Assembly (NCBI RefSeq): GCF_964204645.1
Contig: NC_134025.1
Location: 1,550,001 to 1,614,000, forward strand
Origin: Tubulanus polymorphus
Taxonomy: Eukaryota; Animalia; Nemertea
Length of the DNA stretch: 64,000 nucleotides
Direction of reading: 5' to 3'
Every line of letters starts with the position of its first letter. Position 1 is the stretch's first letter. Below the pieces are notes generated by a model. The model was given only the letters and a program-made list of their open reading frames with translations, searched no databases and had not been told where the DNA came from. Shown here one piece after another: positions 19,373-58,100 of the stretch. The position numbers and the translations under genes were made by a program.

Positions 19373-22300
19373 CAGACAGACGACTGAAATTAGACCGAAA
19401 TAACAAAACCGTTAAATTCAAAAATAAACAGATATAATGTGGGAAACTATACTCCGCTTGTGTTTAGCTCTTTATTTTATAATAATGATTGAAATAATTT
19501 TCTACTTAAAAGCGCTTTTCATTATAAAAATCTCGAAACTCTAGAGAAAGATTTAGAAATTTCGAAGTTTCTCTGAAAAAAACTGCCGCTTTGAAATGAT
19601 GAAAATATTTGAATAATGCGGATTTCATTTGATAGACTTTTCTTCAAGAGGCGAGATGCCCGAGTCGGAAAAACACCGTGCGCAATATATAGTAGAATGG
19701 AAAACACTATTTCAGTTCCGAAATAACCTTAAGATGGGCTTTACATGTGTATGCTAAAGCTTGGCTCCCCTCGACGCCAAAAAAAATTTTGTCCTGTTCG
19801 AAGAGAAAATGAGGTTTGCTGCGTCTCGATTCAAATCGAAATTTATTAGAAAATATAAGCATTAATCATTTATCGACGACAGAAGTTATAAATTGAATTT
19901 ATCAACAGCAGAATCGCATTTTAATCGCTTTTAATAAGGTTATAATTCGAATGAATGTTCAATAAATCATGACCAGTGCGACAGTTGTTTGATAAGACGA
20001 AGACAAACTGGAGCCAAACGTGGAGACAAGATAGCTCAACTCGAAATGACTACAATCAAATACCGCTATTGACAAATTTGTCTTAGATAACGCAATTATT
20101 TTGATTATGGAAATAATTGTATCAGATGACGGTGAGTACAGTTGAGTGCTATGTGAGTTGTCATGGCAAAATAAGCTTCATTCAAACTATATATAAAAGT
20201 CTTTAAAACATTATTTCAAACTTCGTTGAAAATTTGGAAACATTTTTACACTATCCTTTAAGAATATACGTATAAAATCCATTATATTAAAATTCAAGAA
20301 TTTAAGAATCTAGAAGCAAAATCTTTTTTAAAACACGGTTATCATTTTTCCAAAATATTATCCTGTTTTCAAGTGAGATTTTTCCGGGAATTTTGAGCGT
20401 GAATTCTTTATTTACTTCTATCATGATATCTAAAAGAGTCCGGGAATGATTAGGTTATTAAATGCAGAAAATCGTATCTTCATCAATTATTTACGGGCGA
20501 AATATGAACCGAAAACTTAATTTGTATTACACACGTTATTTGATTCACTTTACATGATCTGTATATGCGATTGATATATCAACAACTACTTATTTCGGTA
20601 ATTCATACATCATGTGCGCTGAATATTGCGGTTCAATTCCTATTCGACGATCCCTCGAGTTTTAATAAAGAAAACATACTTCGTGGAACAACCATTGATG
20701 AAACAATTTGAGTTACGAAAATATATGAAAACTGTAAGTATGAATGAATTAGTGGGAAATGTTTCCTCGAGCTAGTAGTTTATTCGACGTATCAATTTTA
20801 CGAAAGTCATCTTCAGTGGGATTCTTTACAGACTTGATGGAATAATCTCTTTGATCTTATAAAGTATAAAATTTAAATGTTCCTGATATAATGTCTTCAT
20901 AAGTTTGCTTAGTGATTGAATTACTGATTCACGTGAGGTGTTTAATTACCTGTTAATTGCTCGGATTTATTTAGTATTTGTGTTGATTTAGGTAAATAAA
21001 ACGATTGAGCGCGGCGCTAAAAGGCCCGTAATCAATTACACTTAGAATAACAGTTCAACAAATATCAATTAACGGAAACTGAAAATAAAAACATTATTTT
21101 CTCGTCGTAAGAAGCCGAAACTCAGGATCCAGTTAAACAGTTCCCACTAGAGATTCTTCGGTTGGAAATAAACTAGTTTAAATCATGAGTCAAACCAAAG
21201 CCGCGATCGCACGAAGAGAAAATGGACCGAGTCGTACGGACCAGGTCGTCCGGACCAGGCCTGCACCCTATTTCGGTACCAGTGTGAATGGTTGGCCCGG
21301 TCATATCACTGTTTTATCCCACAATGAATTTTGATTACCTGCAATCTCAAATTCCAAAAATTGTTAGTTGATTAGTTGGATGTTTTACCGCTGTTTCTCT
21401 CCACATTTTCCATTGAAATTCTCCACACTAATTTTACAATAATTAATTCGAATCTGTTATATCTCAATCAAATTCAAATTTTAAAATGTTTAAATTTTCG
21501 CATTGCGTCAAATAATACAATTCTAGGTTTTGAATTCCGCTGGCAATCCTATAATTGTATTATTGTGAATTTTTTCTCTTTTCTTTTTTCTAATTTTGAT
21601 CTAAGATTGTCGAATAAACTCAACTAAACTCAACTAGCGAATGTTCTCACAATAAAAATGCCGTCTATTGTATTTCAGTAAGGATTACCTTCTAAGCCAC
21701 TCAAAGCCTGTGTTCTTACAAGTAACCTATAACGCTTAAAAGATCTCGTCAGTTATACCATAAAAAGTTGGAATGAAGTTTTTCATCTTTTTCCAAAGGT
21801 TTTCACGCATATTTCATCAAGAAACTGAATTTCATTAAGAATCAATAAGGGAACGCCGCTGTGATTTCAAAATTTACATCTCAGTAATATGAAGATTACT
21901 TACCTGTGAAATGATTATTGAATTCTTGATAAATGAGTTGTCAGTATTGAGAATGTTGCTGTGATATATCCCGTGGGTTGAATATAGTATAAATGTCAGT
22001 CTCGTGTTTCAGTGTAGTTCGTTTTTATAAGTTATTTCCTCGGCGTTATCTTACTGTATCACGCTTCCTATATCCTATCTATAACAGGTTGTATTAGTTC
22101 TAATCACATCCTACCACAGTCCTAATTGAGCCATTAATACCGGGGGCGGAGCATTTACATATTTTAGGGCTTGATATTTACTTACGATAACCACTACTCG
22201 TGATTGGTTCAATCTGAAATCGCGCATGTGACGTATTATCAAAGTGGTCTTTGTTTTCTTTCCGATCGCACCAAATAACGGACTTCTTTTGAAATCTACT

Positions 22301-38010: not shown

Positions 38011-40876
38011 ATGTCTTATCGAGATTCTGGTAAATAAATATTCTTCGATTGATTTCTCCCAACCAACAACAACTCCTTAATCTTTCAATGACGCTGAAAA
38101 AGGCGCTGATCTAACTTTCAAGTCATCTTTACTTGGCTTGGCTCATCAAAAATACATCGATCTATCCCATTTTTTATTTTATCTCATGAAGCCTAAAAAT
38201 CGGTTCTGTTTGATTAAATTAAGTAACAAGAAGGCCAACAGAACAGACAAACACAAGTTTAGGGTGAAACAATTTTGAAAAAGAAAAACTCAAACCTGAA
38301 AATGGATTTGTCATTTTTCGATATTGTTAGGTCAAAGACGCAGAAGAGACTGGCGTCAAAAAGATGATTCTCACCGCGGAGAGAAGAAGCAACAAACAAC
38401 GGCAGCGGAGGATAGCAATTCACCCGTAATACAAGCATTCATAGGATATCGCAAACAACTCGATAATAAACACGATAAATATGAGAGATTAGTGAAACTG
38501 AGTAGAGATATTACTATTGATAGTAAACGTACTATATTCTTATTACAGAGAATTACAGGGTATGTTAAAAACAATCAGAGGGTTTTATGATTTATTGATC
38601 TCTGGCGCTGCAGTTTAAGCGTCCGGTGATTGTATTTTTCAGGTTTTGAATGATCGCTCTTTGTTTCAGTAATGAACATCAGAAAGATGAAATTCTTTTG
38701 GAAGCGGCCGAAAAATTAGAACAGATTCAAAAAGAGAAATTTCAACAGATTGCCGATGAGTTGTTTTCAGAAGATGCGTATCAGTTCCTACGAGCGTATT
38801 CACCTGGTAATTAATCCATTGAGTGACATGTATTGTGGGTTCGATATTTCTTTTTCCCAATTGCAGGGGTGGATCCAGGGGCCGTTCCGAGGGTTCTGGA
38901 ATACCATAGAGCTTTGTTTGTGCCCCTCTGGAGATACCCCTTAATCCATGGATTTGGCATTGAAGTGCCCTAGTTGATTGCGTGATTTGGCGTAGTAAAT
39001 CCCCCTGAAAACCACGAGTTTGATGTTAAGGCTAAACAAAAATGATACCTTGTTTCTCCGCAGCGGCCGGGTCATTTTTGTAAAATATGATAAAATTTGT
39101 AAACAGTTCATTTCTATAGCGGCCGGGTCTGTTATGGTAAAATTGATCATGATTTTTAAAAAAGTAATGTATAGGGTAGATAGGCGGCCGGCCGGGTCAA
39201 CATTTAAGCTCAGCAGAGCGGAGAAACAAGGTATCAATTTTTTTAAGCCTAAGTGCCCTTTTTTGGCATGATTTGACATAGAAAGTGCCTCCTCCAACAG
39301 TGAGTGCCCTTATATAATTTGGAACCCCCTCAAGAAAGGGCCCTGAATTGGGTAGAGACCAAGGAAACTCTGTCGCCACCAGGATTCAAACCCATGTACC
39401 CTGCATTGACGAGACCAGTGACTGGCAGCTTCGGCCACTGCAGCTCTCAAGTAGACAGAGGTCCTCTCCGCGTATGCGCTTTACTGATGTATTAGGACCA
39501 CGGACGTATAAATTAGATCTAATCAATTGTACACATCCATGATGGGATGGAGAAGTGTTTACCCAGTGTTTGTTGATAGTCAGCCCTCTAACCCCAATGT
39601 ACACAATTCTAAGTATAACCAGTACATGCATAGGGAGGAATAGTGTAATAAATAGAATAGATTCTACAAATGCCTCACAATTTCTTATTGATATTTATTT
39701 CTAGGTTTACAGGAATATATTGAAGCGCTATCATTTTATTGGTATTGGAAACATGGTGATTTAGTAGATCTGACTGAGGTTGAAAAAGCTCTTAGATTTA
39801 ATGTTTCAAATGAAATGCAGGTAACTACTGTTCAAAAGAAAAGACTTTGTGAAATATTAACAGAAATCCCTACGCTACTGAGTTCCCTGATACTCAACTC
39901 AACTCGGTGAAATATTAACAGTCCTGACGCTTTTTGATAACTTTGATTATGGATGTTTTTCCAGAAAAAAGTGGGAGGGTAAAGGGAAAAAATGAAAATA
40001 TGTTATGCGAGTATTTTTCACATATGAAGCCTCGCAAGGACTGCAGAAAAAATTTAAAATGTTTGATGAATTTGATTTAAATGATGGGAGAAATGAAAAA
40101 ATTAACTTTTTTGCAAATCGTAAGATTGAAAATTGAGATAAACATAACTTTTACAAGTTACGAGATTGAAAATCAAGGCAAACCTATAAAAAAAATCTGT
40201 TTTTATTGGGGATCATTCATTCATTACATACGCATAAAATTTGAATTTTTAAACCCCCCCTCCCCCTCTGTACGCAAAATCGGCCATTTTTTCATATAAA
40301 TTAAGCATTACAGTACGCAATTGCACTGACCCTGACCCCCTCCCCTAATGCGTATGTAATAAATGAATGACCCCTTGAAAAATTGTGATGAAAACACAAA
40401 TTAGACCTAAAAAAATTCTTTTTTGGCCGGAGTGAAGCATGGTTGACTGTTCACTTGAATTCTATTAATTGTGAATGTTAATTATTCTGTAGGATGAAAC
40501 TGAAGAAACAGCAGCGGATGAAAGCGTGTTGAAACATGTCACTGTTCCTCCAATCGAGTATATTTTAGGAGTAGCTGATTTAACGGGTGAACTGATGCGT
40601 TGCGCAATACACAGCGTAGGTAACGGAGATCTCGATAAACCGTTTGAAATCTGCGCATTTTTACGACGTATTCACGACGCGTTTCTATCGTACGGGAATT
40701 CATCGCGTGAATTACCGCGCAAAATGTCGACGTTACGATCTAGTTTAAATAAAGTCGAACAGGCTTGTTATACCCTGCAAGTTCGCGGATCCGAGTTTCC
40801 TAAACATATGTTAATAGATCTCATCTCGAAACCCGTAGAATCGAGTGACTTTAATGATGAAGTTTATTACGATTAA
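38011..40876 (+). CDS. TSNAX: Translin-associated factor X (294 aa, 5 exons)
   Basis: Exons 38011-38029, 38331-38559, 38670-38806, 39705-39820, 40493-40876 (885 nt, in frame). Motifs [67 protein letters not shown]. Confidence 0.96.
39030..39249. mobile_element. MITE with TAA TSD (Zator- or PIF/Harbinger-type) in TRAX intron 3
   Basis: taa|ggctaaacaaaaatgataccttgtttctccgc ... gcggagaaacaaggtatcaattttttaagcc|taa. Confidence 0.75.
39373..39446 (-). mobile_element. tRNA-derived SINE head
   Basis: Minus strand: gagctgcagtggccgaag (A-box-like) ... gggtttgaatcctggtggcga (B-box-like). Confidence 0.5.
40208..40374. mobile_element. MITE in TRAX intron 4
   Basis: ggggatcattcattcattacatacgcat / atgcgtatgtaataaatgaatgacccc inverted ends. 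Confidence 0.7.
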
Positions 40877-42154
40877 AGAATTCACGAATGTTGTTTTTAA
40901 ATGTTTGCATTTATTGAACTCATTGAAATAAGCTCGATTATATTGATTATAATGAAATAAAATGTAAAAATTTTCATGAACCAAATATCGTCCTCTTATA
41001 TTGATGTTTGTTCGCAGCTTTAGATAAGAATTATTTAACGACTTCTTGCAGCCATGAGCTTTATCGACATGACTAAGCCTGATTAGTCGGTAAACACAAT
41101 TCCTTTTTTTACCATTACGATAAGCGAACATGACAGACCCCTTTAAGATACATTCAGTCCCAAACGAAGCCGTTTATTTGGGATTCGAGCATGGCTATCA
41201 CTATAGCTGGTTCGAAATCATGATTTGTACCGCCTCCAGATAGCATCCTATTTTCGCTGATTGTTTTGACCGTAAATTAACATTAAATTAGTTAATAAAA
41301 CCATCTACCTTAATTATTCCAATTCAGAAACTTACTACAAATTTATCTAACTTCATTACTGCAATAATTTATCATTCTTTAAGTTGAATAGAAAAATAAA
41401 ATTAAAATCCGCGAATCTACGGAATCTGTCAGGTGGCAGCACCGTACGGCCATGTCAATGAACCAGGAAGTAAAATGCACCTCGAACCCTTCAAGAAGCA
41501 AAAGGTTGAAAGCCTGTTTTGGTCGATGGCTAGTGACGTCATCAAGATCGCCTTTTTGTTACTCCCACAGCTAAACAACTCACTTTTAACGGTTAACCGC
41601 TGAATTTGAATTTTCTGTCAAGTGTATTCTTGCTGGCTGTTGATTAAAAGATTGTGAATCATGTTTTCCGAACGTGTTAAGCTTGTCTCCGGACCAGTTG
41701 GTGGGAATATTGGTTTGAAAAAAGAGGTAGATTGCAAGATTATAAAAAACTCACTGGGTAACACTGGTGAACGCCGCGAGGATCGTACACGGTGGTGCAG
41801 GCGAGGCGTCGCGACCGCGCGGCGGCAGGGCTTTTTAATTTTGGCTTTTGCCAGTTTTGGAGTCTTGTTATTGCCACCACGGCCACGTTACCACCACACT
41901 CACATTGTCGCTAGGCCTACTGTACTGCCACTACTTTACTTGCTTGCTACTTACTCGGCTAAATTAATTTGTCTTCATCCACGCTTACTTCCCCCCTCCC
42001 CCCCCCCCATGTTAACAAGTAATTTCTGCCAACCGAACCACCAGTCGCAGTAGCCGTAGGCAGTATACTATAGTGCAGTAGTGGGTACCCAGTGGCATGC
42101 CATTGCCATGCCACTGGGTATAGGCCTATGTTGCCCGTACACAGTCACCACCTA

Positions 42155-42702
42155 CTAATGTCTATTTATTAATTGATGAGACCTGTTTTTCTGGGATATT
42201 TTGCTTACTTTTTGGGGTACATACCTCATTTATGTCTTAACAGAATGCCAAAAATCGCGGACAACAACTGAATATCCGATATATTTCCAGTTCTGTACCA
42301 ATTAGATGGATTGGCAAAAAGACTCCTTAAGTCCAGTTGAATGAGAGAGAAAATCCTCCATTTTGTCAAGTTTCTTGGATTTGAACATTGTTACCATGCC
42401 TACGCCACCCTGATTTAGTTGTTGAGACCCCACAAGAAAAATAACTTCATTTCGTAGGCATGGTGACAATGTAAAAATTCAAGAAATTTCACAAAATGGA
42501 GGATTTTCTCTCTCATTCAATTGGACTTAAGGAGTCTTTTTGCCAATCCATCTAATTGGTACTGAACTGGAAATATATCGGATATTCAGTTGTTGTCCGC
42601 GATTTTTGGCATTCTGTTAAGACATAAATGAGGTATGTACCCCAAAAATTAAGCAAAATATCCAAGAAAAACAGGTCTCATCCATTAATAAATAGACATT
42701 AG
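42155..42702. repeat. Foldback: ~250-bp inverted arms with 48-bp spacer
   Basis: 42155-42404 is the reverse complement of 42453-42702 with only scattered mismatches. Confidence 0.93.
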
Positions 42703-43719
42703 GCCTTAAATATTCCAACAACCATTCCAAATCCAGCAACAAAAAATAAACAATAAATTTTAAGGCCTCGAAACAGAAGAATGGTAGTTCCCTGTATTCA
42801 GAGTCAATGAAAATGTATTTCTTGTTGCAGATAGATAGCCTAACCAATTTCAGGATAAGTACTTTTCATTCCTTTATTTATATACGTAGCCTAACTGTTT
42901 AATCCTGGCCCTGGCCACTGAGGGTGTATGCATTAGGTCTGGTCCCAGTTTCACTGAGCTAGTTAGCCAACAATTAAGCTGAGAAATTTTGTTAAGTGGC
43001 AATTCAGGGGCAGATCAGGAGAGTATACAGGGGTGTACACCCCTTAAAACTTTTAAGTCGCAATGAAATTTAAAGGAAAAATTAAAAATATCAACAAGTA
43101 TTTTTAAAAAGCTTATATTCCAAAACATGTTCTCTGTAGGCCTACTTCCAAAATATAGGTATTATGTTTTCTGATGATCTGGTGCCCTTTTGATTTTTAA
43201 TTATATATGATACTGATATGTATGCCCTATTTTGGGCTGCACCCCTCCCTGAATCAGTCTGCCTGCAATTAAGAGGATGTTTATAGATAATTTGATTTAG
43301 AGGAATCTTTTAATTTAGTGCCTGATGTTAGGCCTTCCACAGCCTGGTAGAGGTGGTTTAGGTGAACAAGTTAGTCTTCACACTGCAGGACTTTTAGGTG
43401 AAGGTGAAACTGGCCCTTGTTTATGCATAGGCTACTGTGTGTGCACGCTTATCTTTATGCTTATTCAATTAGAATACCCATGTAGCTACCAAATAAGCAC
43501 CGCTTCAGAGGATTTTAGAAATTTTCACTTCAATAACACTGTGTTCTATTTTTGGGCACTAGCTACTATTATGCACAATTTTTTCAATCAATTCTATCAC
43601 ATTGATATACATATATGTGTCACTTCTTTTGCATGTAGTAGGGTCTTACAGTAACCAGTGTGCTCTCTCACACCTCCCTGTGATATTGGCCTGAGACTGA
43701 CAAATAATCTTTTTTGTAG

Positions 43720-45908
43720 CGTATTGGTCTCGTAGCAGACAGCATTTTAAAGTATGCTGGGCTAGATGGTGTAGGCTTATTTGAATGGACAAGGATCGTG
43801 TGCCCCGGAGGAACCATTGAAACATTGATGGAAGGTAATTTCTCGGTTCAGTACTGATTTATATTGTTCATTTTCATTGGGTTACTGATTAGTTGTATAT
43901 TACAGAATTGAAAAAGGTGAAGATGCTGAATGTGGAACAACTAATCGTCCATGTTGGAACAAATAATATGACGCGTGATGTCCCGCTTGAGATTGTTCTG
44001 CGAAGACACGTTGAATTAATTCGATTGTTGCTCTATAAATGTACTGGGACCATCATTGTACCAGCTCTTTTTCCTCGATGTGATGAGTAAGTATCAAGAA
44101 TAGATTTTTCTTGAAGTACTATATTTATGATCGATGTAATGATTTTTAAATTTCTTTCTTTTTTAAAGTTTCGATGCTGACACAAAAATATTTCATTACA
44201 ATGAAATGCTGCACCGCGAATGCTTTACACTTGGTGTAAAGTTCGTTGATTTTCACTTCTCAAGAGATCTCCTTTCACCGTAAGTAATCGTTTAATTTTA
44301 ATAAGCCCAGTAGGTTATGTGCATTTTTTCGCGATTTAAACTAACTTGTTTTTTTCTAAATTTTGTGATCTAGGACTGACTTGTTACACCCCAGCCGTAA
44401 GGGAAATCAGTTCATAAATAACAGGATAATGGAACTACTGCTATTGAAAAATGAAGATGAAATGTACGTAGAATTGCATTATTTTATCCAATTACCAGGT
44501 ATGCAAACTACATAAATTTTATGATTGTACTGGAAATAATGAATGATTCTTAATCAGGTGCCCTCAATACTTTCCATATGAGATTGAAAAGATGCAAAGA
44601 AGTAGAGCAGTCCATCGACGAAAGGTAATCATTTAGCATTGATATCCTAGAAAATGAATGATTTGCAATTAGTTTTTATAACTTGAATACGAAACCACTT
44701 TATTCAAAATCCTTGCATTGAATTAATGAATCATATTGATAGCTGATAGCAAAAAACAAATTGAAGGATGATCAAGCAAGAGCATGGGATGATTCAACAA
44801 TAGTGGTAAAGTTGTTTTCCTAAGTGATTTGTACGTGATTTATCTTTATAAAGTTAGATATATTTTAACAGTTTTTTGTATCCTTCAATCCAGTATAGCA
44901 GTTTTGACGTTGCGCATCATACAAGGAAACAATTCTGTTGTGAAGATCAAAGAGCCTTTTTCACATTCGACCAGGTACATATCATCTCAAGAACTTATGA
45001 TTTAATATTAGTTTGGTCACTTTTATTTCACAATTACCTAAAGGCTGTGCATGCACAAATCTGTCTTTTTTTTCCAGTACATGACTAAAATTGATGTGGC
45101 TGGTGTTGCTATTTGTTTAAAGCCTCAATTATTTACTCCTTTTTATCAGACTAAGAACGTGAGTAATATGTTTCTCGAAATGAAATTATAGAAATTCATT
45201 GGTATTGGTATGATTTATGCTGTAAAGCTTTGTTTTCATATTCAGGGATGCTACAATAGAAGTTGTCACAATACTAAAAGATTTAACAGAAAAAGGAAGT
45301 CAGTGGAACATGTAAGTTTGATGCCCTTTCTGCGAGATGCGGGTTCATTTTTGTTATTTTTGCTTAGATGTTGAAGCAAAAACAGATTAATGTGCTCTTC
45401 CACATTAGGTTATTCATCCACAGACGGATCCTGCTGACTCGACATGTTTTTGCGGAGTTGAATTCACCAATTGGAAAGATCTTCTAGACCATGTTAGTTT
45501 AAACCATACTGAAATGTAAGTACAACATAATTCAATTAATTTAGTACCTACAAATCTAAATGACTTAATGCAAATGACTCAGAGATACCCATGTTTTATG
45601 TTAGGCCTATATGGGTAATTTCATACTCTATCTATTCATATGTCTAAAAAAAGTGAGTTGATAATGTGTATTTCAGGCGGACAATGGAGGAAGAAGGAAA
45701 GGACGCGGCTTGTGACAATTTCTCGGAAGGAACGATAGAGGAAGCAGAAAAGATGCAGGAAGATAGTTCGAAAGAAAGGATAGAAAGATTAAAGATGCAG
45801 GAAGATAGCTGGATGGAAAACAAAAAACAGCTAAGTATCACAGGTGGTGGAGGTATCGAACCAATCATAATTGATGATAGTGATGAGAATGATTCTGATG
45901 ATGAACAT
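43720..45908 (+). CDS. Multi-exon SGNH/GDSL-hydrolase-like domain plus zinc-finger region inside the MULE
   Basis: GT-AG exons 43720-43834, 43906-44086, 44169-44279, 44374-~44463 give RIGLVADS...CPGGT...LIVHVGTNN...ALFPR...YNEML...FVD...DLLHPSRKG (SGNH blocks I, II, III, V). Six more short exons to ~45514 (last CFC-x12-H-x4-H) and exon 45677-45908 can stay in frame. Start codon uncertain. Confidence 0.75.
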
Positions 45909-48900
45909 GTATGTGAGACTCGATACAGGCTGCTATTCTATTGATCAGATTAATAGGTTTCTTTTCTTACATTATGCTAAAACCAAACAACAAGATCTTT
46001 TTGCCATGAATCTTTGGGTAAATAGTAAGCCTTTAAGCCCCACTGATTCAGTCGATTGGGAACAGATTCAAGCATTTTCAAATATGCTCTTTTCCTTAAA
46101 ACCCTCTCAACAATTTCCAGTTGGTAATAATAATAGCGTATCTGTATCAGAACTTCAGACGATGACTAATCAAAAATGGTTTGAAGGATCTGTGTTAAAT
46201 GCTTTTGCATCTATGATAAATGAACAGTACTGTAATATTCATGCATTTATGATGCCACTTACATTTGATGCTAAGAAATATGTTTCAAATTTATATAAAA
46301 GATTCGGTCCTAATCCACTCATAAGTTGTGATAAACTAATTTTTTTCCTGCATGTTGGCACCCAAAACGATTTCGTATTTCTAAATTCTTATGGACATGT
46401 TGTTGCCAATCATTATGCACTAGCAGTTTTTTACCCAAAAAGTAACAAACTGTGTTATGCTGATACACTAGCATGGGATTGTCCAAGGGAATTTAAAAAT
46501 CATTTAAGATCTGTTTTGAAAGGTTTGAATTGCCCTGATCCTGTTTATATCCACCTCCATGATCCTCATTTTGTTACTGAAAATTCAGTGCATGTATGTA
46601 GTAATAATTGTACTAGTTATTACCCACTCCAATCATGTTCATCTGTCTGTGGCCCTGCTACATTAATTGGTGCTTGCATTGCAACCTATTATGAAAAGGA
46701 TATTTCAAGTGTATTTTCATCTCCCAATGAATTATCTTATCTTAAGAACATTTCTAACTATTCTGATTTTGTTAGATTGATATTGATTAATTGGCTTATG
46801 AAACATCTAATTGATATTACTCAACTCTTCTCAAAGTCATCTCAACCTACTGCTAATAGTACTACTTTCTCTAAGATATCACGATTATCTCGCAGACAGA
46901 GACATAAACGATCAACTGAGTCAAATAATACACTAGCTAGTTCTGAATTAAAGATGTCAGACTCTTATATTGCCCCTAAAAAAAGCAAATCAGTCTTAAC
47001 TACAGCCAAATCTAAATCTACACCAATTTTGAATAATGAATCAACACTTGAATCTACACCAATTTCGAATTATGAATCTGCAGCAATTTTGACTAATGAA
47101 TCAACACCAATTTCGAATAGTGAATCTGCACCAATTCTGACTAATGAATCAACACCTGAATCAACACCAATTTCGAATAGTGAATCTGCACCAATTTTGA
47201 CTAATGAATCTACACCAATTTCGAATAGTGAATCTGCACCAATTTTGACTATTAAATCTACACCTGAATCTACACCAATTTCGAATAATGAATCTACACC
47301 TGAATCTACATCCTCAATTTTGAATCCTCAATCCTCATTAACTCTAAATTCAGCTGAACCATTAACTTCCCATATTAATGGTTCTAAAACTACTATCTCC
47401 CATCGCATCAGGAGAGGAAAGCATTATCTTGAAGTTGCTTTTCATTCAACTGGCAGTAAGACGAAGTATAAAAGTTTTCATTGTACAGACCAAGGTACAA
47501 ATGACCAGGTAGCCATTGACACTATCAAGAAATACCTCAACAACCAGAATCCACTTAGTGATGAATGGGTTGAAAATGGGGAAGTAATGACTGGTGCTGA
47601 CACAAAATATTATTTCGATAGATTCACTTTTGATTTTACAAAAACAGTTCGTCTGCATAAGAATGTGCGGCCTTCATTTGTTGGTAACCAGACAACGATG
47701 AAAGCTTCCTTAACATTAAAAAAGAATTGGCAAACCCATAGATTAGATAATAAATTTGAATTTATTGAGCCAATTGTTGAGGATACTTCTCAATTTGTGG
47801 CTGCAGAAATGCTCATAAAATGTTCGTCAAAGTCTTCAGTTTGTAAATCATCATGTGGATATTATCTTTCAAAGTTGAATATGTCCAGTAACATCACTAA
47901 TTGTCCCTCATGTCAAATTGACGTTGTTTTAAATGATAAACAATGTATTCATTGCTCCATTACCATGTCTAACAAATGGAGGAAAAATGCTGATGGTGAA
48001 ACACTTTGTTCCAACTGTTACAACTATAAGCTGAAGAATAAACGTGATCGTCCTGTGAAGTTAAGGCAGCAGTTTGAGCCAAAAAAATTAATTCACCCTC
48101 ATTTTATGTGTTATTGGGCAACAAAACTTGTATTATTTAGTACTGATTTATCCAAGTGGAGAATCTTCAGCAAACCACTTAATGGTCAATATCATGACAA
48201 TATTCCTTTACAAATTAAAAAGCGACCTAATTTATCTACTAGAGATAGATGGGATGAAAATAGAGTCATGATGAAAGCCACAGCAATGAAGGTTCTTTCT
48301 GCCACCAATGCTCACAATAACCTTCATGTATCAAATGTAAATGATGGCGCCGGTCATGACCATACCCTAGATCAAATTTCAAATAGATTGAAATATATTG
48401 ATAAATCTTCGATAAAATTACATATGAAATCTCAAGACGAAATACCTATTCTAAGTTCTGATTGGAGAAATACTGAAAAATTATTAGAGGGTAACTATGA
48501 ATCTGTCCTTTTATTTCAACGAGGGGATGCCACACTCAAACGTAATTATCACATTATTCTCTCTGATCCTCGTTCTCTGGAACATTTATCCAACTTTGGA
48601 CAATCTGTCATTGGTATTGACGTGAAACATGATTTCAATTCGTGGAAATTCAAAACTTCATTTGTAACTTTTGCAGACAACAAAAATGAAGGACGTATTG
48701 CTGCTGCATCAATTAGTAGTGATGAAGGGGGGGCTACTCATGCAACTACCATCCAGTTAGTTCTAGCCAATACACCATGTAAAGACGAAAAATGTAATCA
48801 TCCATCTGAATTCTATATATTTAATGATGGCAATGGTTTTTTCAGAATCAAGCCATGTTCATCAACATCTAGATTTTGTCCTTTTGTACAACATGATAAA

Positions 48901-51183
48901 GATGCAAGTCTAAAGCAAGGAGCATCTGACAATAATCTTAAATCAGTACTATGTAATTTTCATGTCCTGCAGTGTATTCGTCGCTTCATGAATGAAAATC
49001 AAGAACTTCGCTTATTTTGCAAGCCTCTAGAAACTGGTTTCAAATGCATTATGAGATCATGGGATGCTTCCTCTAGAACTGATATAGCCAATTCATTTAT
49101 TAGTTTTATTGAGAATGATATTTCTTTAGACCTTATGTCGCAAGATACAAAAACATTATTTATTGATTACCTAAAGAAGAATTGGTTTAATTCCCAAATT
49201 TGGTCTGATGCATTCAATGCTGAATCAATTTATCAGTCAGACCAATCTAACAGAAATAACCCTTTGCTATTAACTGATAATATTACTGAGCGCAAATTCA
49301 AACAAATAGATGATGTCTACTTAAGTGGACACCTAAATAAACTGATATCATCTTTTGTACGATTACTGTTTGAAAATGTTTTTAATGATGAGATCAAAGC
49401 GACAAATATGAACAATCTCCAATTTAAGCAACTTGACCAACGAGTTAAGAATATACGTCACCTTGAAAAGATAGAAAAGTGTTGCAAAAGAGCCTTTGAT
49501 TTATTACAGAATAATGAGATTTTAAAATATGATGAAGAAACTAATTGGTTTGTTGTGAAGAGTTCTTCACGAAAGAACTTAAATAGGTTAGAAGATAATG
49601 ATAATTTTTTCAATGGTGATACTCAATATACATTCAATCAGCTTGATGTTTTAGAAGAAAGATTCCCCGATAAAGTATCAATATCCGAGGAACATTCATA
49701 TGACATTTCAAAAAAATGCCGAAGGTACATAGGAAATTTAGATTCAATATCCAGTCGTATCTTATTCAATTACGTTATTACAATCGTTCCTGAAAATTGT
49801 CTTTCATACGTAGATGGTAATTGCCATTTAATCAATTTGAAACTAGGTATATGTACTTGTGAAGCTTTTATAATGATTGGACAACCATATTTTTGCAAAC
49901 ATCTTTTTGCCTGTTTTGCCCAAAAAAACAATATAACCACAACGAAGGCTTTAATTGATGCATATAAATTCCACATTGTGGAGCCTCTGCCAACTTACAA
50001 TTTTACTCGACAAAATATTTCTGTTTCATCTACCCTCATTGATAAGTTAAAAGATCATTCCCACATTGCTAGCTCGAATGATATCAATGCTGCTCGGAAA
50101 GGGCACATTCTAAGTATTTTACATAATGAAAGCCACTGTGGAATTAAGTTAATAAGCGGACGACCTGCCAAACGACAACCTCACAATATGGCTCATAGGC
50201 GTGCTGAGGGTCCAATCAAGGACAATCAGGTTGCCATAAACCTTCCTGAACTTGAAGTGATAGACCCTTACTGTCCTAAGGTTACAATGCCTAAAGATGC
50301 TGAGAATGCAAGACACGGAGGGCGAAAGATAATTAGACCTGCTAACAGAGGTGTATCCTTTTCTGCTATGGTTGAAAATGCTGCTATCAAACTAGGTAAA
50401 AAAGCTAAAATATCAGAAATTGAAACCATAGACTCCACTGATCCAGATCCTGGCAATGATATCGAATTTTCAGCAGATATTTTAAGTCAGAATAAATCAT
50501 CCTTACCAAAAAAATCAAAAGATACCAAACCAAAAGATATTAAGTCAATACCAGTTGTTAAAAATGACTCGAAGTCTGTTTTATTTGAAAAAAGTATTGT
50601 CTGTTCCTTTTGTATTAAAGACAAAATAAATCCTCCATATCTTTGTTCATGTCGCAGGGAACTAGATAGGCACATATCCACTTCTCATTCATCTTTGAAA
50701 CCTATCTCATGTGCTATTTGTTGGGCAGATGGGGTTATTAATTCATATGCAAGTGAAACATTCCTTCAAAAGCACATTCGTATTGAACATAATCATCATA
50801 AGAAAAAATCTATTGTAATCGATTATAATAATAGAGATGATTATCTCAACAGTTCTCCTATTACAGAAATCAATAATTCCAATTCTGAAAAAGAATTAGA
50901 AATTCTTATAGATCAACCTGGAAATGCAGGCCTCCAAAACCTAGCAAAATTGAAACTAGATAATCTTTTGTCATCAAAAGTTGAAAAAACCCCTTCTCGG
51001 TTAGTTGCTGAAACCTGCCCTGTCTGCCACAAAAACTGCAATGCTAATCCTAAGAAAAAGTCCACATTCTCAATTGAATGTGATAATTGCCATAGATGGT
51101 ATCATTGGAAATGTGCTCCAATCAATGAGGCTCCTCCTGAACATATCAGGTGGTTTTGTTTTCATTGTGACCCGATTTCCTAA
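45871..51183 (+). CDS. MULE-family transposase with Ulp1/C48 protease, S/T-rich repeats, GATA finger, DDE core, SWIM, two C2H2-like fingers and PHD (true start probably via splicing)
   Basis: Ulp1: WFEGSVLNAF, HYALAV, YADTL, PLQSCSSVCG. GATA: CIHC-x17-CSNC...KRDRP. MULE: IGIDVKH, QHDKD, CNFH, TDNITE. SWIM: CTC...CKH. PHD: CPVC...IECDNCHRWYHWKC...WFCFHC. 1770 codons without a stop. Confidence 0.9.
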   Translation: MMIVMRMILMMNMYVRLDTGCYSIDQINRFLFLHYAKTKQQDLFAMNLWVNSKPLSPTDSVDWEQIQAFSNMLFSLKPSQQFPVGNNNSVSVSELQTMTNQKWFEGSVLNAFASMINEQYCNIHAFMMPLTFDAKKYVSNLYKRFGPNPLISCDKLIFFLHVGTQNDFVFLNSYGHVVANHYALAVFYPKSNKLCYADTLAWDCPREFKNHLRSVLKGLNCPDPVYIHLHDPHFVTENSVHVCSNNCTSYYPLQSCSSVCGPATLIGACIATYYEKDISSVFSSPNELSYLKNISNYSDFVRLILINWLMKHLIDITQLFSKSSQPTANSTTFSKISRLSRRQRHKRSTESNNTLASSELKMSDSYIAPKKSKSVLTTAKSKSTPILNNESTLESTPISNYESAAILTNESTPISNSESAPILTNESTPESTPISNSESAPILTNESTPISNSESAPILTIKSTPESTPISNNESTPESTSSILNPQSSLTLNSAEPLTSHINGSKTTISHRIRRGKHYLEVAFHSTGSKTKYKSFHCTDQGTNDQVAIDTIKKYLNNQNPLSDEWVENGEVMTGADTKYYFDRFTFDFTKTVRLHKNVRPSFVGNQTTMKASLTLKKNWQTHRLDNKFEFIEPIVEDTSQFVAAEMLIKCSSKSSVCKSSCGYYLSKLNMSSNITNCPSCQIDVVLNDKQCIHCSITMSNKWRKNADGETLCSNCYNYKLKNKRDRPVKLRQQFEPKKLIHPHFMCYWATKLVLFSTDLSKWRIFSKPLNGQYHDNIPLQIKKRPNLSTRDRWDENRVMMKATAMKVLSATNAHNNLHVSNVNDGAGHDHTLDQISNRLKYIDKSSIKLHMKSQDEIPILSSDWRNTEKLLEGNYESVLLFQRGDATLKRNYHIILSDPRSLEHLSNFGQSVIGIDVKHDFNSWKFKTSFVTFADNKNEGRIAAASISSDEGGATHATTIQLVLANTPCKDEKCNHPSEFYIFNDGNGFFRIKPCSSTSRFCPFVQHDKDASLKQGASDNNLKSVLCNFHVLQCIRRFMNENQELRLFCKPLETGFKCIMRSWDASSRTDIANSFISFIENDISLDLMSQDTKTLFIDYLKKNWFNSQIWSDAFNAESIYQSDQSNRNNPLLLTDNITERKFKQIDDVYLSGHLNKLISSFVRLLFENVFNDEIKATNMNNLQFKQLDQRVKNIRHLEKIEKCCKRAFDLLQNNEILKYDEETNWFVVKSSSRKNLNRLEDNDNFFNGDTQYTFNQLDVLEERFPDKVSISEEHSYDISKKCRRYIGNLDSISSRILFNYVITIVPENCLSYVDGNCHLINLKLGICTCEAFIMIGQPYFCKHLFACFAQKNNITTTKALIDAYKFHIVEPLPTYNFTRQNISVSSTLIDKLKDHSHIASSNDINAARKGHILSILHNESHCGIKLISGRPAKRQPHNMAHRRAEGPIKDNQVAINLPELEVIDPYCPKVTMPKDAENARHGGRKIIRPANRGVSFSAMVENAAIKLGKKAKISEIETIDSTDPDPGNDIEFSADILSQNKSSLPKKSKDTKPKDIKSIPVVKNDSKSVLFEKSIVCSFCIKDKINPPYLCSCRRELDRHISTSHSSLKPISCAICWADGVINSYASETFLQKHIRIEHNHHKKKSIVIDYNNRDDYLNSSPITEINNSNSEKELEILIDQPGNAGLQNLAKLKLDNLLSSKVEKTPSRLVAETCPVCHKNCNANPKKKSTFSIECDNCHRWYHWKCAPINEAPPEHIRWFCFHCDPIS
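47020..47320 (+). repeat. Coding tandem repeat (ESTPISNSESAPILTN-type) in the transposase linker
   Basis: Repeated gaatc(t/a)(a/g)caccaattt modules, frame preserved. Confidence 0.9.
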
Positions 51184-51959
51184 ATAGTTTGTATAGAATA
51201 TTATTGATCGGGTTTCGAATGAATCCCTGACGTTAGAAATATTTTCATTTCCCATGGTGAACGTAGAAGCCTATAATGACCGTCACTTAGTCACCTATAT
51301 ATTTACTCGATTATATATAAGGTTAAGAAGCGATGTATATGCACTGGTGTTTATAGTGCTCTATTTCAGGTTTTTTCTTTCAGGAAAATATATTTTGTGA
51401 ATAGATTACCGCTTGATTTTTTATGTTACAGGTTACTGCAAAATCATCAGTTATTGTGATGCGTGCCGATGTCTCTGGATGATTCTGACCATGTCTAGAA
51501 CTTCAACATCCTTGACTTATCATCAATTGGCAGCAGTATACATACATGCATGTTCAGAGAGTGTATGAAGAGAGTGTATGGACACATCAACCTCGGTTCA
51601 AGGCTGTCCCTGATTAAATTGTATAATCCATATATAATATATATAGATTGGTCCCATTTTAACTTACTCAACTGCTTGAATGTCTTGTTTGTTATTCGTA
51701 AATTTTCACTTATTCATTGATTGTTTCTGTAGAATTTTATATGTGATATATAAACGTGGAAACCAGGGCCCATTGCACTATGAAAGACACTTGACATTTT
51801 TTTGGGACAGATCTTTCTATATGTTTATGTCCTCGAGGCATCTGAAGTTAAGAAAATTCCCTTTGAAAACTGGAAATGACATAATGAAATAAGTTGTGGA
51901 ATGTTTACAAATGACAAAATGAATGAATTTTGCATTCCTAAGGCCCTATATATTTACTG

Positions 51960-52815
51960 CAGTTAGTCCTGTATGTCTTTTTTATCGCAATTTACTGTGG
52001 TTTATTCCTGTTTGTCCTGTATGTCTTTGTGATCGCGATCGCAATTCATTGGTTGCATTGTTTACTGTTAGTCCTGTATGTCTATCGCAATTAAGTTAGT
52101 CCTGTATGTCCTGTATGTCTTAGTTAATCGCAATTCATTGGTTGTTGAATTGTCTACTGTTAGTCCTGTATGTCCTGTGGTTTAGTCCTGTATGTCTTAG
52201 TTAATCGCAATTCGTTGGTTGAATTGTCTACTGTTAATCCTGTATGTCCTGTATGTCTATCGCAATTAAGTTAGTCCTGTATTTCTTAAATAATCGCAAT
52301 TCATTGGTTAATGAATTGTCTACTGTTAGTCCTGTATGTCCTGTGGTTTTGTCCTGTATGTCTTTGTGATCGCGATCGCAATTCATTGGTTGCATTGTTT
52401 ACTGTTAGTCCTGTATGTCTATCGCAATTAAGTTAGTCCTGTATGTCCTGTATGTCTTAGTTAATCGCAATTCATTGGTTGTTGAATTGTCTACTGTTAG
52501 TCCTGTATGTCCTGTGGTTTAGTCCTGTATGTCTTAGTTAATCGCAATTCGTTGGTTGAATTGTCTACTGTTAATCCTGTATGTCCTGTATGTCTATCGC
52601 AATTAAGTTAGTCCTGTTTGTCCTGTATGTCTTAGCTACGAGCAATTATCAAACTTGATAATTGCTCGTAGGTCTTAGTTAATCGCAATTCATTGGTTGC
52701 ATGGTTTACTGTTAAAGCTGTATGTTCTGTATCTCTATCGCAATTTCATTGGTTGCATTGTTTACTGTTAAAGCTGTATGTTCTGTATCTCTATCGCAAT
52801 TTCATTGGTTGAATT
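51960..52815. repeat. Complex minisatellite with 337-bp higher-order duplication
   Basis: Built from gtcctgtat, atcgcaatt and cattggtt modules; gatcgcgatc recurs at 52031 and 52368. Confidence 0.9.
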
Positions 52816-52968
52816 GTTAACAGTCCTCTGTATGTACATGTAAAAATAATTAAGGTTCTGACAACAGGTTTGTAAAGTAATCAGCTATCTGTTTTGTCTA
52901 TCGTTGCTTAAATTGTTAACTGTTGTTTTAGAGTTCTGTATGTCTTTGTCGATCATTTTGTCTGCACT

Positions 52969-53210
52969 CAGGGGCGGATCCAGCATTTTGAAGGGGGGGG
53001 GGGCAAATGAAAGCAACAACAGATGGCTGTAAGCCATTCCAGAGCAAGCACCGATAACGCGAAGACCCTTCCTAAAAATTTTTTGGAAAAATAGATGCAA
53101 GCAGGTGCATTCTGAGCATTACTTAATAGAAAGATTTCATTCGGTTTTTACTCAGTAACGCATAGATTTGCGGCTACATCGGTAAAAATAGAGGGGTGGA
53201 TCCGCCACTG
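52969..53210. mobile_element. MITE with CAG(G/T)GGCGGATCCA ends nested in the MULE
   Basis: caggggcggatcca / tggatccgccactg; a related degenerate copy at ~43005-43266. Confidence 0.65.
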
Positions 53211-54117
53211 AATAGCTATTGTTTTGTGTAGGATTGTATCTGTGAATTAAGTAAAGTTACTTACTCCAGTCTGATGTTATTGCTTATTGCTCGTATTTTA
53301 TTGTTTTAAGTGTGCGAATACTTTTCTTAGATTTATGGAGATCAGGATGACGAGGGTTCGATTTGAACCAACAAATAAACAAAAACATTCAAACCTCAAA
53401 TTAATCCGTTTACTTGTCTTTATTTTTGGGGAACATTTTTTTACCTAGTTCAGATTTGATAACACAGTAGTCGCTTGTTCCAAAGCGATGTGCCGTTGAA
53501 GACAGACCTGAAGGTCTTTGCCGACAGCGATGCTATCTAGGATTTCAAAGGATGTGAAGAAGGTGCATCTTCGACAACCATAGTTTGCAGTTTTAACAAT
53601 TTAAAACAATAATAGTTTCATTAAACAACTTAAAATTTAAAGATTTAGTGGACTTACTGTTTAACTAGGGCAGGGATTTCTCGCAACCGTACATGATATA
53701 TACATACACTAGCAGTAAATACAATGTACTTCTAACCCTTATAAAACTTAAACTATTATTAGTTATTTTACAATTATTAAACGGCAACGTTGAAATGCGA
53801 TGTGCGCTCAGAGCGGCCGTAGTGATTTTGGCGTATTGTGGGATTCGAACCGCTCGGAATTTGTACTAGTGACGTCACTCGCCATCGACCAAAACAGGCT
53901 TTCAACCTTTTGCACTTCAAGAACTGCAGAACTCTTCACAAAACTGTTACAAAGTGGTTTGAATGCTGTTAAAGTGGCTGATGCACGAGTAAGTATGATT
54001 TTGAGTATGTACAGTTTAGAATAGATAGTTGTCACGAGCTGTTATTAATTATTAATCAATGTGAAGTGAGAAGAGGTTGATCTCCAATTCGCGCGGGCCA
54101 ACAGGTAGTGACACAAA

Positions 54118-55163: not shown

Positions 55164-58100
55164 ATGAACAGAGTTCATCGTTTCAACTTATGGAAGGTAA
55201 GAATCTTGTCTTTCTAGTGTAACCTTTTTGGGGTGGAAACTTAGGAATTTAAGTTTGACTTTCAGATAGGCTGACCAACATAAAAATGCTTCCTCCAGCT
55301 CTGTCTGAATAGAATATTATTGTGACATTGTTGAGTGATGTAGTTTGGCATAGAAAATGTCACGATTCCTAATTTAATAGGCCTTTGTTCCTGGCTCTAG
55401 AAAACATATGATTTGCTTTCATTCATTAAGATTAAACATTGAAGAATGTTTCGTAATGAACATGTTTTCCCCTTGTTTTATGTATTTTATCACACATGAT
55501 GATGGTCCGATGGTCCGTCTCTAGAAATAGTCCGAAACGTCGAGTCTTGATTTTCTACGTCAAATATGGATGAATAAATTTTGTTTGTAATCATTCCAAT
55601 TTTATATAGCAGGATATGTATGGATATATGCCTTATACGGATTATATCCATTAAAAATTATTCTTTCACTGATAACTGAAGTTATTTATCACGAAGACGA
55701 AGATTTTTAAAATCGGTCATTAGTGTTTTCTTGTCAAATTTTATTGCGTGTGCTATTGATAAATCAGTTCATACTCTGATTCACACAAATACCGTATTTG
55801 AATGTGTCAGACGGTTTGATAAGTGAAAATATTTCGCCCTTAGTCTTAGATCTGGAATTTCCCATATATTATGTATTGTGACATTTTCTTTCAGAAACCA
55901 GTTTTAGCTGTTTATTCAGCCAACACTCGACGTATTCGTATACAGAACCATTATTCACAATGATGCCATTTTTTGCCTCGTCATATTTTCCTATGAAACA
56001 CATATAATTGACCATTATTTCAGCCATTATTCTTTCATGATCAGTTTCTCATGCATGAATTGCCCTCGGTACTTTTATGCTTCACCGCCAATGTCGCATC
56101 TTTTCATTCTGTAAATACTTCTAAAAAGAAAATATCATGATTTTTATTAATTTTCATTATGAAATTGATTGATTTTTTGTGAATATTTTAGATTGTTCTG
56201 CTGCTACAAGTGGTACATGGAGCAGCAAACAATCTCTCAGGTAATTATGAATCTTAACATTACAATTCTAGATTATCAAACTGTTTATGAACTACACTAG
56301 AATGAACATAAAATATTTCTCTGAGACTATTGTTGCCTGGTTGGTACTTCTTACTTTTTCAGTTTCTTCCTCAATAAACGCAACTACTACTGTTCAGATT
56401 ACTGTACCAACAAACACAACTGATGCAACTGCTACTGAACCAACTGATGCAACTGCTACTGAACCAACTGATGCAACTGCTACTGAACCAACTGATACTG
56501 CTACTGAACCAACCAATGCAACTGCTACTGAACCAACCAATGCAACTGCTACTGAACCAACTGATGTAACTGCTACTGAACCAACTGATGCAACTGCTAC
56601 TGAACCAACTGATACTGCTACTGAACCAACCAATGCAACTGCTACTGAACCAACCAACGCTACAACTGTCCTACCAAAACTAGGAGAGAATTGTACTCAA
56701 ACATGTGGTTCACATAGCAGTGGTTGTGAACAGGGTGTTTGTAAATGTCTTAAAGACTTCTATGAATCAACAGCTGGCTGTGTTTCAAGTATGCATTACA
56801 TTTATTACAAGGATTTCACTGAGTTCTGAAAAATTCCTCATCAGTAATAGTGCTATACATGTATATATTGTGATAGGTTACTCTATGCTGCTGGTGGTTG
56901 CTGTTATAAACAATGATTGACCAATTAGTGACATTTATATATAATAATTGCTCTATTAAACATATCATTAATGATTTTTATCACTTATCACTGAACCAAA
57001 ACAATGATCAATTACCTAGAACTATTAATAAAAACTGCCAGAGAATGATGTAATATATGCATCGTTTCTTTAATTCTTTTCTATATTTTAAAGAACCCAA
57101 ATGAATCTTTATTTACAGACAAAAATTTATCACCGCAAAATGTGACCATTAAAGATATCGGATTGACGAGTGTAAACATAACATGGAATCTTGCAACTGA
57201 GATTAATACCTCGTATATAATCAAATGGGGAGATCTGAATAGAACAGTGACTGACACCTCATTCACTGTACCAGATTTAAAACCTGGATCCATCTACAAT
57301 ATTTCCGTCTATGGAGAATATAATGGTGCTGTTGTTCAGGCATTCACAGAGTTAGTCAGAACATGTAGGTATTGGGTAAAGTATAGATGTATTTTATCAT
57401 AGTTGAGAGCATAGAACTGGCATGAATATGATTTTCATGATCAACATGACAGAAAACTTGCTACAGCAGCTTTAAATCTAAATAATGTGTATAAACTTGA
57501 AGATTTATTTTTGTTTACAGTACTTGAACCACCAAGTAATATTCAGATTGTCAGTGTAACGACTGGTGAAGTGAATGTGAACTGGTCTTCGGTGGCGAAT
57601 GTAACAAAATACAATGTGACCTGCTTGAAATTGACAGAAAATGGGAGCACTGCTGTTTCTTCGGAAATAATTGAAACGACAAATGCAACGTGTTCCGAAT
57701 TGGATCCTGGAATGCTGTTTGAAATAACTGTGATGTCAATTAAGGAGAATTTCAAACCATCACAACTATCATCAATCAAAGGAATAACGAGTTAGTACAT
57801 GTATATACAGCGCGCTACTCGGTGAAACACTATTTCTCCCATTAAACAACAATATTTGTATATTTCAGATCCGATGAAACCATCACACTTCTCGGCATCC
57901 GTTCTCAATTCTAACAGTACTAATGCCATACAGTTAAATTGGACTTATGCTGACAACTCTGGTCATACCGGTTTCAAATTACTACAAACACCAGCTGAAG
58001 GATCCCTTAATGACAGCTTACAGTCAAACGACAGATCTAAGACACAGTTTGTGGCAACTGGTTTGGTTCCTGGTAGATCGTATAGATTTACAATAAAGCT

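Follow-up and report, generated by a model that had tools for sequence, protein, structure and literature searches.

An SGNH esterase module split by introns and fused to the transposase in a Mutator-like element of the nemertean Tubulanus polymorphus

In this work, we have analysed a stretch of 64,000 nucleotides from the nemertean Tubulanus polymorphus (NCBI RefSeq assembly GCF_964204645.1, contig NC_134025.1, positions 1,550,001 to 1,614,000 of the forward strand), here called the window, whose own positions are used throughout. Within it lies a 12.4-kb Mutator-like DNA transposon, young and present in multiple copies, in which a chain of short exons coding for an SGNH hydrolase stands before a long open reading frame (ORF) for a protease and a transposase. 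The element is bounded by terminal inverted repeats (TIRs) of 44 bp, the left one at 41498-41541 on the forward strand and the right one at 53870-53913 on the reverse strand, which in self-comparison are 97.7% identical with a single mismatch (E 9e-14). Outside them is a target-site duplication of 9 bp (41489-41497 and 53915-53923), judged at this one insertion site; its right copy is separated from the TIR by one extra base, and the sequence fits equally well a duplication of 8 bp in which the terminal bases are mismatched. A subterminal minisatellite (52038-52818) precedes the right TIR. For Mutator/MULE transposons TIRs of 14-500 bp have been reported (PMC6446971), and the element has the TIRs, the duplication within 8-11 bp and the DDE triad with a CxxH motif in the insertion domain that characterize this superfamily. 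Rehavkus elements are described as having a 9-bp duplication, a TIR of 26-400 bp, a PHD finger and a minisatellite before the 3' TIR (PMC6446971), and all these outward marks are present here. The element is Mutator-like and carries the outward marks listed for Rehavkus. The long ORF of the window gave no match to the Pfam family MULE (PF10551) at the curated cut-off, and sub-threshold matches to it were found in three of the 19 proteins scanned (best E 9e-4).

Reading the three frames, we found that 11 exons on the forward strand, from 43720 to 45908, join into 398 codons without a stop. Exons 1 to 4 (43720-43834, 43906-44086, 44169-44279 and 44374-44463) make up the SGNH domain, exons 5 to 9 (44558-44624, 44743-44805, 44894-44974, 45078-45158 and 45246-45311) code for a basic region with Cys and His residues, exon 10 (45409-45515) holds a C2H2-type zinc finger (Pfam zf-C2H2, E 0.04), and the 5' part of exon 11 (45677-45914) is an acidic linker, which in intact copies forms one large exon with the long ORF. 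All ten introns between these exons are of the GT-AG type and measure 71-161 nt, and the GC content is 39% in the exons and 28% in the introns. Donors and acceptors score above random GT and AG sites of the region, and none of 100,000 draws reached either value, a test that overstates their strength because the sites had been picked by eye. Single exons reached no significance in Pfam (exon 2 matched GDSL_2 at E 0.2) or Protein Data Bank (PDB) searches. A hidden spliced gene of about 11 GT-AG exons had been proposed in the preliminary description of this DNA; it is borne out by the stop-free chain and by matching RefSeq models, and the SGNH blocks, the zinc finger and the acidic exon were all found where that description had placed them.

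The SGNH domain is most clearly seen in two of the RefSeq model proteins, in which Lipase_GDSL_2 (PF13472) scores above its cut-off of 32.9 bits (P0138, 39.2 bits, E 1.4e-9; P0161, 35.0 bits, E 2.5e-8). Blocks I, II, III and V follow in order, with Ser at 43741, Gly at 43807-43812, Asn at 43962 and the Asp-x-x-His pair at 44378 and 44387. A search of PDB sequences returned three matches up to E 10, namely Oskar twice and the ORF1p esterase of the retrotransposon ZfL2-1, the OSK domain of Oskar being the best (E 0.002), so the kinship to OSK and to esterases of LINE ORF1 named in the preliminary description stands, these being the closest solved relatives by sequence. A structure model built from the single sequence (pLDDT, the predicted local distance difference test, 51) is weak, and almost every Foldseek or VIA match to it is an SGNH protein (the best with Z 10.6, root-mean-square deviation (rmsd) 3.3, 142 residues aligned), in agreement with the fold that had been expected; the nearest Atlas clusters are eukaryotic proteins of 150-180 residues, annotated as GDSL_2 where they are named. 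When aligned to ZfL2-1 (PDB 4C1B; an ORF1p esterase of the type also found in CR1, RTEX and Penelope elements), with residues numbered as in that protein (PMC3905857), the Tubulanus domain is co-linear over the four blocks and keeps the five catalytic residues (S143, G165, N195, D279 and H282), the three gating residues (I144, T194 and L281) and, from the pair of transposon-specific residues, H191. Unlike ZfL2-1, it is part of a DNA transposon, split by introns and fused to a transposase, has Pro in place of S228, and is preceded by only 22 residues with no coiled coil. The domain has an SGNH fold with the five catalytic residues of the ZfL2-1 esterase intact, and ester hydrolysis is predicted from its sequence.

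The same fold is shared with OSK (PDB 5A4A and 5CD9), and the Pfam family OSK (PF17182) reaches 23 bits here (cut-off 27, E 5.2e-5). It is worth weighing whether the fusion stays uncut and its SGNH head acts as an OSK-like tether to RNA or granules, by which the transposase or the transposase mRNA would reach the germ plasm, the Gly-Gly-Gly run of the acidic linker serving as a hinge. The OSK domain being the best PDB sequence match, its weak Pfam match, the change of S228 and a basic region after the domain (23 Lys and Arg against 15 Asp and Glu) all speak in favour of such a tether. However, Oskar is described as non-catalytic (PMC3905857) whereas in the Tubulanus domain the triad and the oxyanion residues are intact, so that the loss of catalytic residues that marks OSK is not found here; moreover, no binding to oligo(A) RNA was seen for the esterase of ZfL2-1 (PMC3905857), and the Gly-Gly-Gly run tracks with the catalytic Cys of the protease, as described below. 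We consider this reading unlikely, and favour one in which an active esterase is released from a polyprotein.

How is this module joined to the transposase? In the window, exon 11 runs into a stop near 45944, as had been noted before. All four runs that gave contigs over 45640-46260 (X1 to X4; run X5 gave no contig for the element) carry 226 extra letters between 45914 and 45911, a net difference of 230 nt with respect to the window, flanked there by a 4-base microhomology (45911-45914). The extra residues of the fused RefSeq models correspond to exactly these 226 nt and are carried by eight of the nine models that reach the junction, P0142 being the exception; with the 230 nt restored, the reading frame of exon 11 continues into that of the long ORF. 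Because the 230 nt are present in four of four runs and eight of nine models and restore the frame, they represent a deletion in the window copy, and we rejected the idea that they are an insertion in the other copies. Thus the stop near 45944, real in the window copy, is due to the deletion, which shifts the frame so that the protein would end at 431 residues. The window copy is a deletion mutant, and in intact copies the fusion is a plain read-through. When the 76 missing residues were compared with a profile built from seven relatives, their conservation was not significant, 71 of the 493 shuffles scored being equally good.

The preliminary description had proposed another route, a splice from 45909 or 45913 to 45949, 46066 or 46121 within the window copy. 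These donors and acceptors do exist, are compatible in phase and would give open frames of 2087-2143 codons. However, none of the 19 models uses them, run X4 retains the region, and the codons 45916-45948, which would be lost, match a motif that each of the nine relatives has; we regard a fusion by this route as extremely improbable, and read-through in copies without the deletion as the way in which the two parts meet. In X4, a contig of 1713 nt opens with the final 33 letters of exon 10, passes from there straight to 45677 and continues through the 226 letters into the long ORF. Intron 10 is thus removed in X4, in which no contig covers 45640-45660, and this is the only junction seen at the level of reads; the kind of run X4 is not on record. 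As a separate observation, X2 and X3 show the intron at 45640-45700 and X4 shows only the spliced form of exons 10 and 11, three runs from one sample. If X2, X3 and X4 were all RNA, splicing would be specific to library or tissue. The P element is spliced in a tissue-specific manner.

Sister copies of the gene are represented among RefSeq proteins of the same species. A HMMER search (135 matches) returned a protein of 100% identity, and the copies comprise 19 distinct model proteins in three clusters, from 18 named loci and one whose name was not shown. Two of the models, P0136 (two loci) and P0139 (one locus), are fusions of 2196 residues that contain part of the SGNH domain together with the DDE transposase; from an internal Met onward they are identical to the exon chain at 362 of 362 residues, and share 1754 and 1757 of 1760 residues with the long ORF. 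Each junction from exon 2-3 through exon 10-11 is present in eight to 17 of the 19 models; that of exons 1 and 2 was scored in four, as the test required four upstream residues, and is crossed by a further 11 that start at the internal Met. RefSeq models are predictions, and those of this kind usually rest on RNA-seq. The fusion of esterase and transposase that had been suspected is well supported by models at three loci, even though its proposed splice route appears in none.

Transposase-free models also exist (P0142, P0157 and P0159-P0164). P0142 splices from 45909 to a 3' exon at 51432-51482 on the forward strand, bypassing the transposase, and resembles the model to be expected for the window copy; P0159, P0160 and P0162 reach the same acceptor from exon 4. 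In P0157, P0164 and P0138, an alternative acceptor at 44899, five nucleotides into exon 7, leads to a stop two codons later and to an SGNH-only product. Could the element then have two genes, the first ending with the 3' exon (51432) or with the stop in exon 7, and the transposase being translated on its own? Besides these models, it is in keeping with such a layout that the models of relatives mostly begin near the Gly-Gly-Gly run. Against it, the spliced X4 contig begins in exon 10 and reaches the long ORF, the fused models stand at three loci, and one locus holds both a long isoform of 1388 residues and a short one of 175, so that isoforms or derivatives seem the better description of the short forms. 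We judge two separate genes to be very unlikely and a single spliced gene to be the better description; since alternative acceptors exist and one locus has both isoforms, esterase-only products, made by isoforms or by deleted copies, are likely in addition.

The long ORF, whose true coding part spans 45916-51183 on the forward strand, codes for the protease, repeats, a GATA-type finger, the transposase, a SWIM motif, a C2H2 finger and a PHD finger. The Mutator-like DDE core (48202-50019) has its Asp residues at 48619 and 48895, the CxxH at 48952-48963, the Glu at 49288 and the SWIM motif at 49852-49902. Among the aligned sequences with a residue at the position in question, the first Asp is kept in 12 of 12, the second in 11 of 13, the CxxH, which is common to MULE and hAT (PMC5225508), in 12 of 13 and the Glu in 13 of 13. 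A model of the core from 66 sequences (pLDDT 87) has as its best match, in both Foldseek and VIA, ISCth4 (Z 11.3, rmsd 6.3, 255 residues aligned), which we take to be a member of the IS256 family, with Hermes second (Z 9.0); a profile search of the core against PDB sequences found no transposase, which was detected by the fold search alone. The GATA-type finger (47944-48024) scores below the Pfam cut-off (E 0.0023) and matches GATA structures of the PDB, and the PHD finger (51016-51168) is at the cut-off (PF00628, E 3.2e-5). In-frame tandem repeats of 24 and 108 nt occupy 47015-47310 of the ORF, with a length variant of 12 nt in X3.

Upstream of these, at about 46120-46800 on the forward strand, lies an Ulp1-like cysteine protease of clan CE, with His at 46411, Asp at 46462, Gln at 46630 and Cys at 46648. 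It has the His-Asp-Cys order with Gln before the Cys and the similarity to Ulp1/SENP proteins that mark this class: a profile of the long ORF and nine relatives matched yeast Ulp1 (1euv) at E 1.1e-5, and Pfam Peptidase_C48 gave no match. The acidic linker contains four consecutive Gly codons (45843-45854), the only Gly-Gly-Gly (GGG) run in the model of 2196 residues and a candidate site of self-cleavage. The protease His can be detected in 17 proteins, 12 of which keep the Cys. Six of these 12 have a single GGG run along their full length, placed 220-273 residues ahead of the His; shuffling gave p 0.008-0.023 for each of them, and the base rate is 12 in 1161 windows of 54 residues. These six represent four lineages with 29-36% core identity, P0003 with P0071 and P0005 with P0006 being counted as pairs. 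In P0005 and P0006 a C2H2-like finger precedes the run, as exon 10 does in Tubulanus; the idea that P0005 starts with half of a degenerate SGNH domain was not supported, as there was no phmmer or Pfam match and no usable Atlas match. In the crab proteins, which have Tyr for Cys, the upstream run was found in none of five; three reach 350 residues upstream without any Gly-Gly, and two are too short. One further relative, P0011, has two tandem Ulp1-like domains, with Cys in both.

Because the GGG run is absent where the protease has lost its Cys, these patterns suggest that the element's own protease may cut at this site, which we regard as a serious possibility though short of a firm prediction. 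A precedent exists in African swine fever virus, whose SUMO-family protease pS273R cuts polyproteins at Gly-Gly-Xaa (PMC8619059). In both cases an element encodes an enzyme of the SUMO-protease family and also a polyprotein with a Gly-Gly-Xaa site; the viral protease, however, is encoded by a separate gene and its cleavage has been demonstrated (PMC8619059), whereas in Tubulanus enzyme and site lie on one predicted chain and the cut is predicted from sequence patterns. A complex prediction of the protease with a GGG peptide, run with no alignment, scored 0.02, which speaks neither for nor against a cut. Our literature searches found no report of self-cleavage by Ulp1 domains of transposons. 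These domains have been linked in the literature to the SUMO and ubiquitin pathways of the host, and the GGG run now offers a concrete candidate substrate, the element's own polyprotein.

We lean towards the view that the window holds a damaged copy of a young Mutator-like element in which one spliced gene codes for a predicted polyprotein of about 2,250 residues, likely cut by itself at the GGG run, which frees the esterase module. Transcription would start near the left TIR, and after removal of eleven introns translation from an ATG at 41661 would give the polyprotein, in the order SGNH esterase, zinc finger, GGG linker, Ulp1-like protease, GATA finger, DDE transposase, SWIM and PHD. Cleavage after Gly-Gly would produce an esterase piece of about 400 residues ending in di-glycine and a protease-transposase of about 1,850 residues, which would bind the TIRs and transpose by cut-and-paste. 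By analogy with the ORF1 protein of ZfL2-1, which is a slow esterase, binds anionic liposomes and not oligo(A) RNA, and is dispensable in HeLa cells (PMC3905857), the freed piece may hydrolyse acyl esters slowly and bind to anionic membranes; such a head would likely be a germ-line accessory for persistence or trafficking, with which the chemistry of cut-and-paste could dispense. Esterase-only proteins would be added by alternative acceptors, and the window copy would yield the truncated protein of 431 residues or a spliced form free of transposase, unless translation restarts at Met 46006.

The start is the weakest link of the fusion case. The likely first exon (exon 0, 41661-41726 on the forward strand, 22 codons, phase 0) begins at the first ATG inward of the TIR and is used by one of the 19 models, P0161, which splices from 41726 to exon 1 and has three differences in 231 residues; with this start, the full protein would have 2254 residues. 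An ATG at 42781, which had been offered as a speculative start, is used by none of the 19, and from the sequence the ATG at 41661 is the more likely of the two.

Several observations weigh against the proposal of a self-cut polyprotein. Regarding its start, 11 of the 19 models, including those at the three fused loci, begin at an internal Met (43828), after the catalytic Ser; the four models with block I have four different first exons, and no model unites all four SGNH blocks with the transposase. As to splicing, one junction alone has support from reads, the X4 contig being no single molecule and the kind of that run not recorded, and the listed contigs of X1 to X3 keep introns. Concerning the esterase, all 17 of 17 models have Pro at the transposon-specific position S228, and in ZfL2-1 the double mutant S228A/H191F is inactive (PMC3905857). 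No SGNH domain was found in 146 other retrieved proteins, although most of these, being fragmentary or predicted as one exon, would not have revealed one, and two word-index searches (which returned two clusters of the same species and no longer protein up to 2000 residues) found no SGNH relative outside T. polymorphus, which is weak evidence. Differences between copies carry no selection signal: the comparison of synonymous with non-synonymous changes, suggested in the preliminary description, gave five against 13 among the differences listed (40 of 108 rows), and is uninformative at so young an age. With respect to cleavage, the GGG pattern was a post hoc observation, no such run precedes the second of the two protease domains in P0011, and six limpet models keep the Cys and lack the run; these start 167-248 residues before the His and cover the range in part, so that they may be truncated models or true exceptions.

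Some of these points would also be expected if the SGNH domain were a captured passenger, as in Pack-MULEs, with most translation starting at the internal Met, a domain devoid of its Ser and no role for the element. The 11 models with that start, the models of relatives, in which no SGNH domain was found, and the lack of a selection signal among very young copies fit such a view. Nevertheless, the catalytic and gating residues and the eleven in-frame introns are all intact, the first ATG inward of the TIR shares the phase of exon 1 and serves as the start of one model, and a head made of a finger and the GGG run is common to distant relatives. A passenger is in our opinion rather improbable, and a functional esterase module of the polyprotein the preferred explanation.

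What might such a module do? For the SGNH esterases of transposons, the usual idea is a role in the assembly of ribonucleoproteins on membranes, which cut-and-paste elements do not need. A complete esterase in a young, multi-copy DNA transposon separates the job of the esterase from retrotransposition, and can be tested in an excision assay. More tentatively, and as a possibility that we would put no higher, there may exist a clade of animal Mutator elements with polyproteins in the style of viruses, whose own protease cuts at a conserved GGG run and releases interchangeable N-terminal cargo, here an active esterase of the retrotransposon type with a SUMO-like di-glycine end. If this were true, spliced cargo genes that have escaped annotation would lie hidden upstream in those relatives whose models start close to the GGG run.

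SGNH/GDSL domains have been described in non-LTR (LTR, long terminal repeat), Penelope-like and LTR elements, and beside Helitrons. Our literature search found none fused to a cut-and-paste transposase (among others in the available parts of PMC3905857, PMC4021074, PMC5408684, PMC13359780, PMC2836005, PMC6431247, PMC5718144, PMC5225508 and PMC6446971; supplements, Repbase reports and subscription papers may hold one), in line with the earlier remark that none was known as standard cargo of such transposases; on precedent that remark is incomplete, since intron-bearing SGNH genes occur with fish Helitrons (PMC4021074). These genes, called texim, are like the Tubulanus one multi-intron SGNH genes carried by DNA transposons, but their carrier is a rolling-circle element, and texim, which flanks or surrounds the Helitron, is a gene of its own with no fusion to a DDE transposase (PMC4021074). 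Where Helitrons have Rep/helicase and ends without TIRs and duplication, the Tubulanus element has a DDE ORF, TIRs and a duplication instead. The animal Mutator/MULE elements with Ulp1 and PHD domains, in hydra, in lancelet and in Rehavkus, share with it the TIRs, an 8-9 bp duplication, DDE with CxxH, SWIM, Ulp1 and PHD (PMC6446971, PMC2836005, PMC5225508), and Rehavkus also the minisatellite before the 3' TIR together with the PHD finger (PMC6446971). The Tubulanus element differs from them in its intron-split N-terminal SGNH module, GATA finger and conserved GGG run, and in the position of the Ulp1-like protease upstream of the DDE core. The word 'esterase' does not occur in the available part of PMC6446971, nor 'sgnh' in that of PMC13359780, and no paper on mobile elements of T. 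polymorphus was found in our search. A word-index search with the first 397 residues of the long ORF gave no match, and among candidate related loci in metagenome and viral contigs none of 48 and none of 42 were confirmed. The crab relatives from Scylla and Portunus (P0010 and P0151-P0154) have all lost the protease Cys, and P0010 lacks the second Asp and the CxxH; as a long open frame persists in two genera despite the lost residues, these proteins are likely a domesticated host gene.

Other repeats are nested in the element. A palindromic miniature inverted-repeat transposable element (MITE) lies in intron 0 (42155-42702, with arms of 250 bp and 96% identity); contigs of X2 and X3 skip it (544 nt, TA ends), and its depth is far above that of the element. 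Two short elements at 43006-43257 and 52968-53212 have GC-rich inverted ends of one repeat type, and the many loose ends at 43221 and 43257 point to other genomic copies. At the insertion site, removal of the element leaves an open frame of about 37 codons, which runs from an ATG at 41452 across the site to a GTAAGT donor (41452-41497 plus 53924-53988), and a host gene may thus have received the element in its first coding exon. A spliced host gene of the Translin family (TRAX-like, 38300-40875; last exon PF01997, E 9e-27) ends about 620 bases before the left TIR. Beyond the element, 56272-56829 holds a mucin-like exon of Thr/Glu/Pro repeats followed by an EB-like Cys module, and on the reverse strand 18716-19411, which has no Pfam match, holds the opening exon of what is probably a homeobox gene, with a motif resembling eh1.

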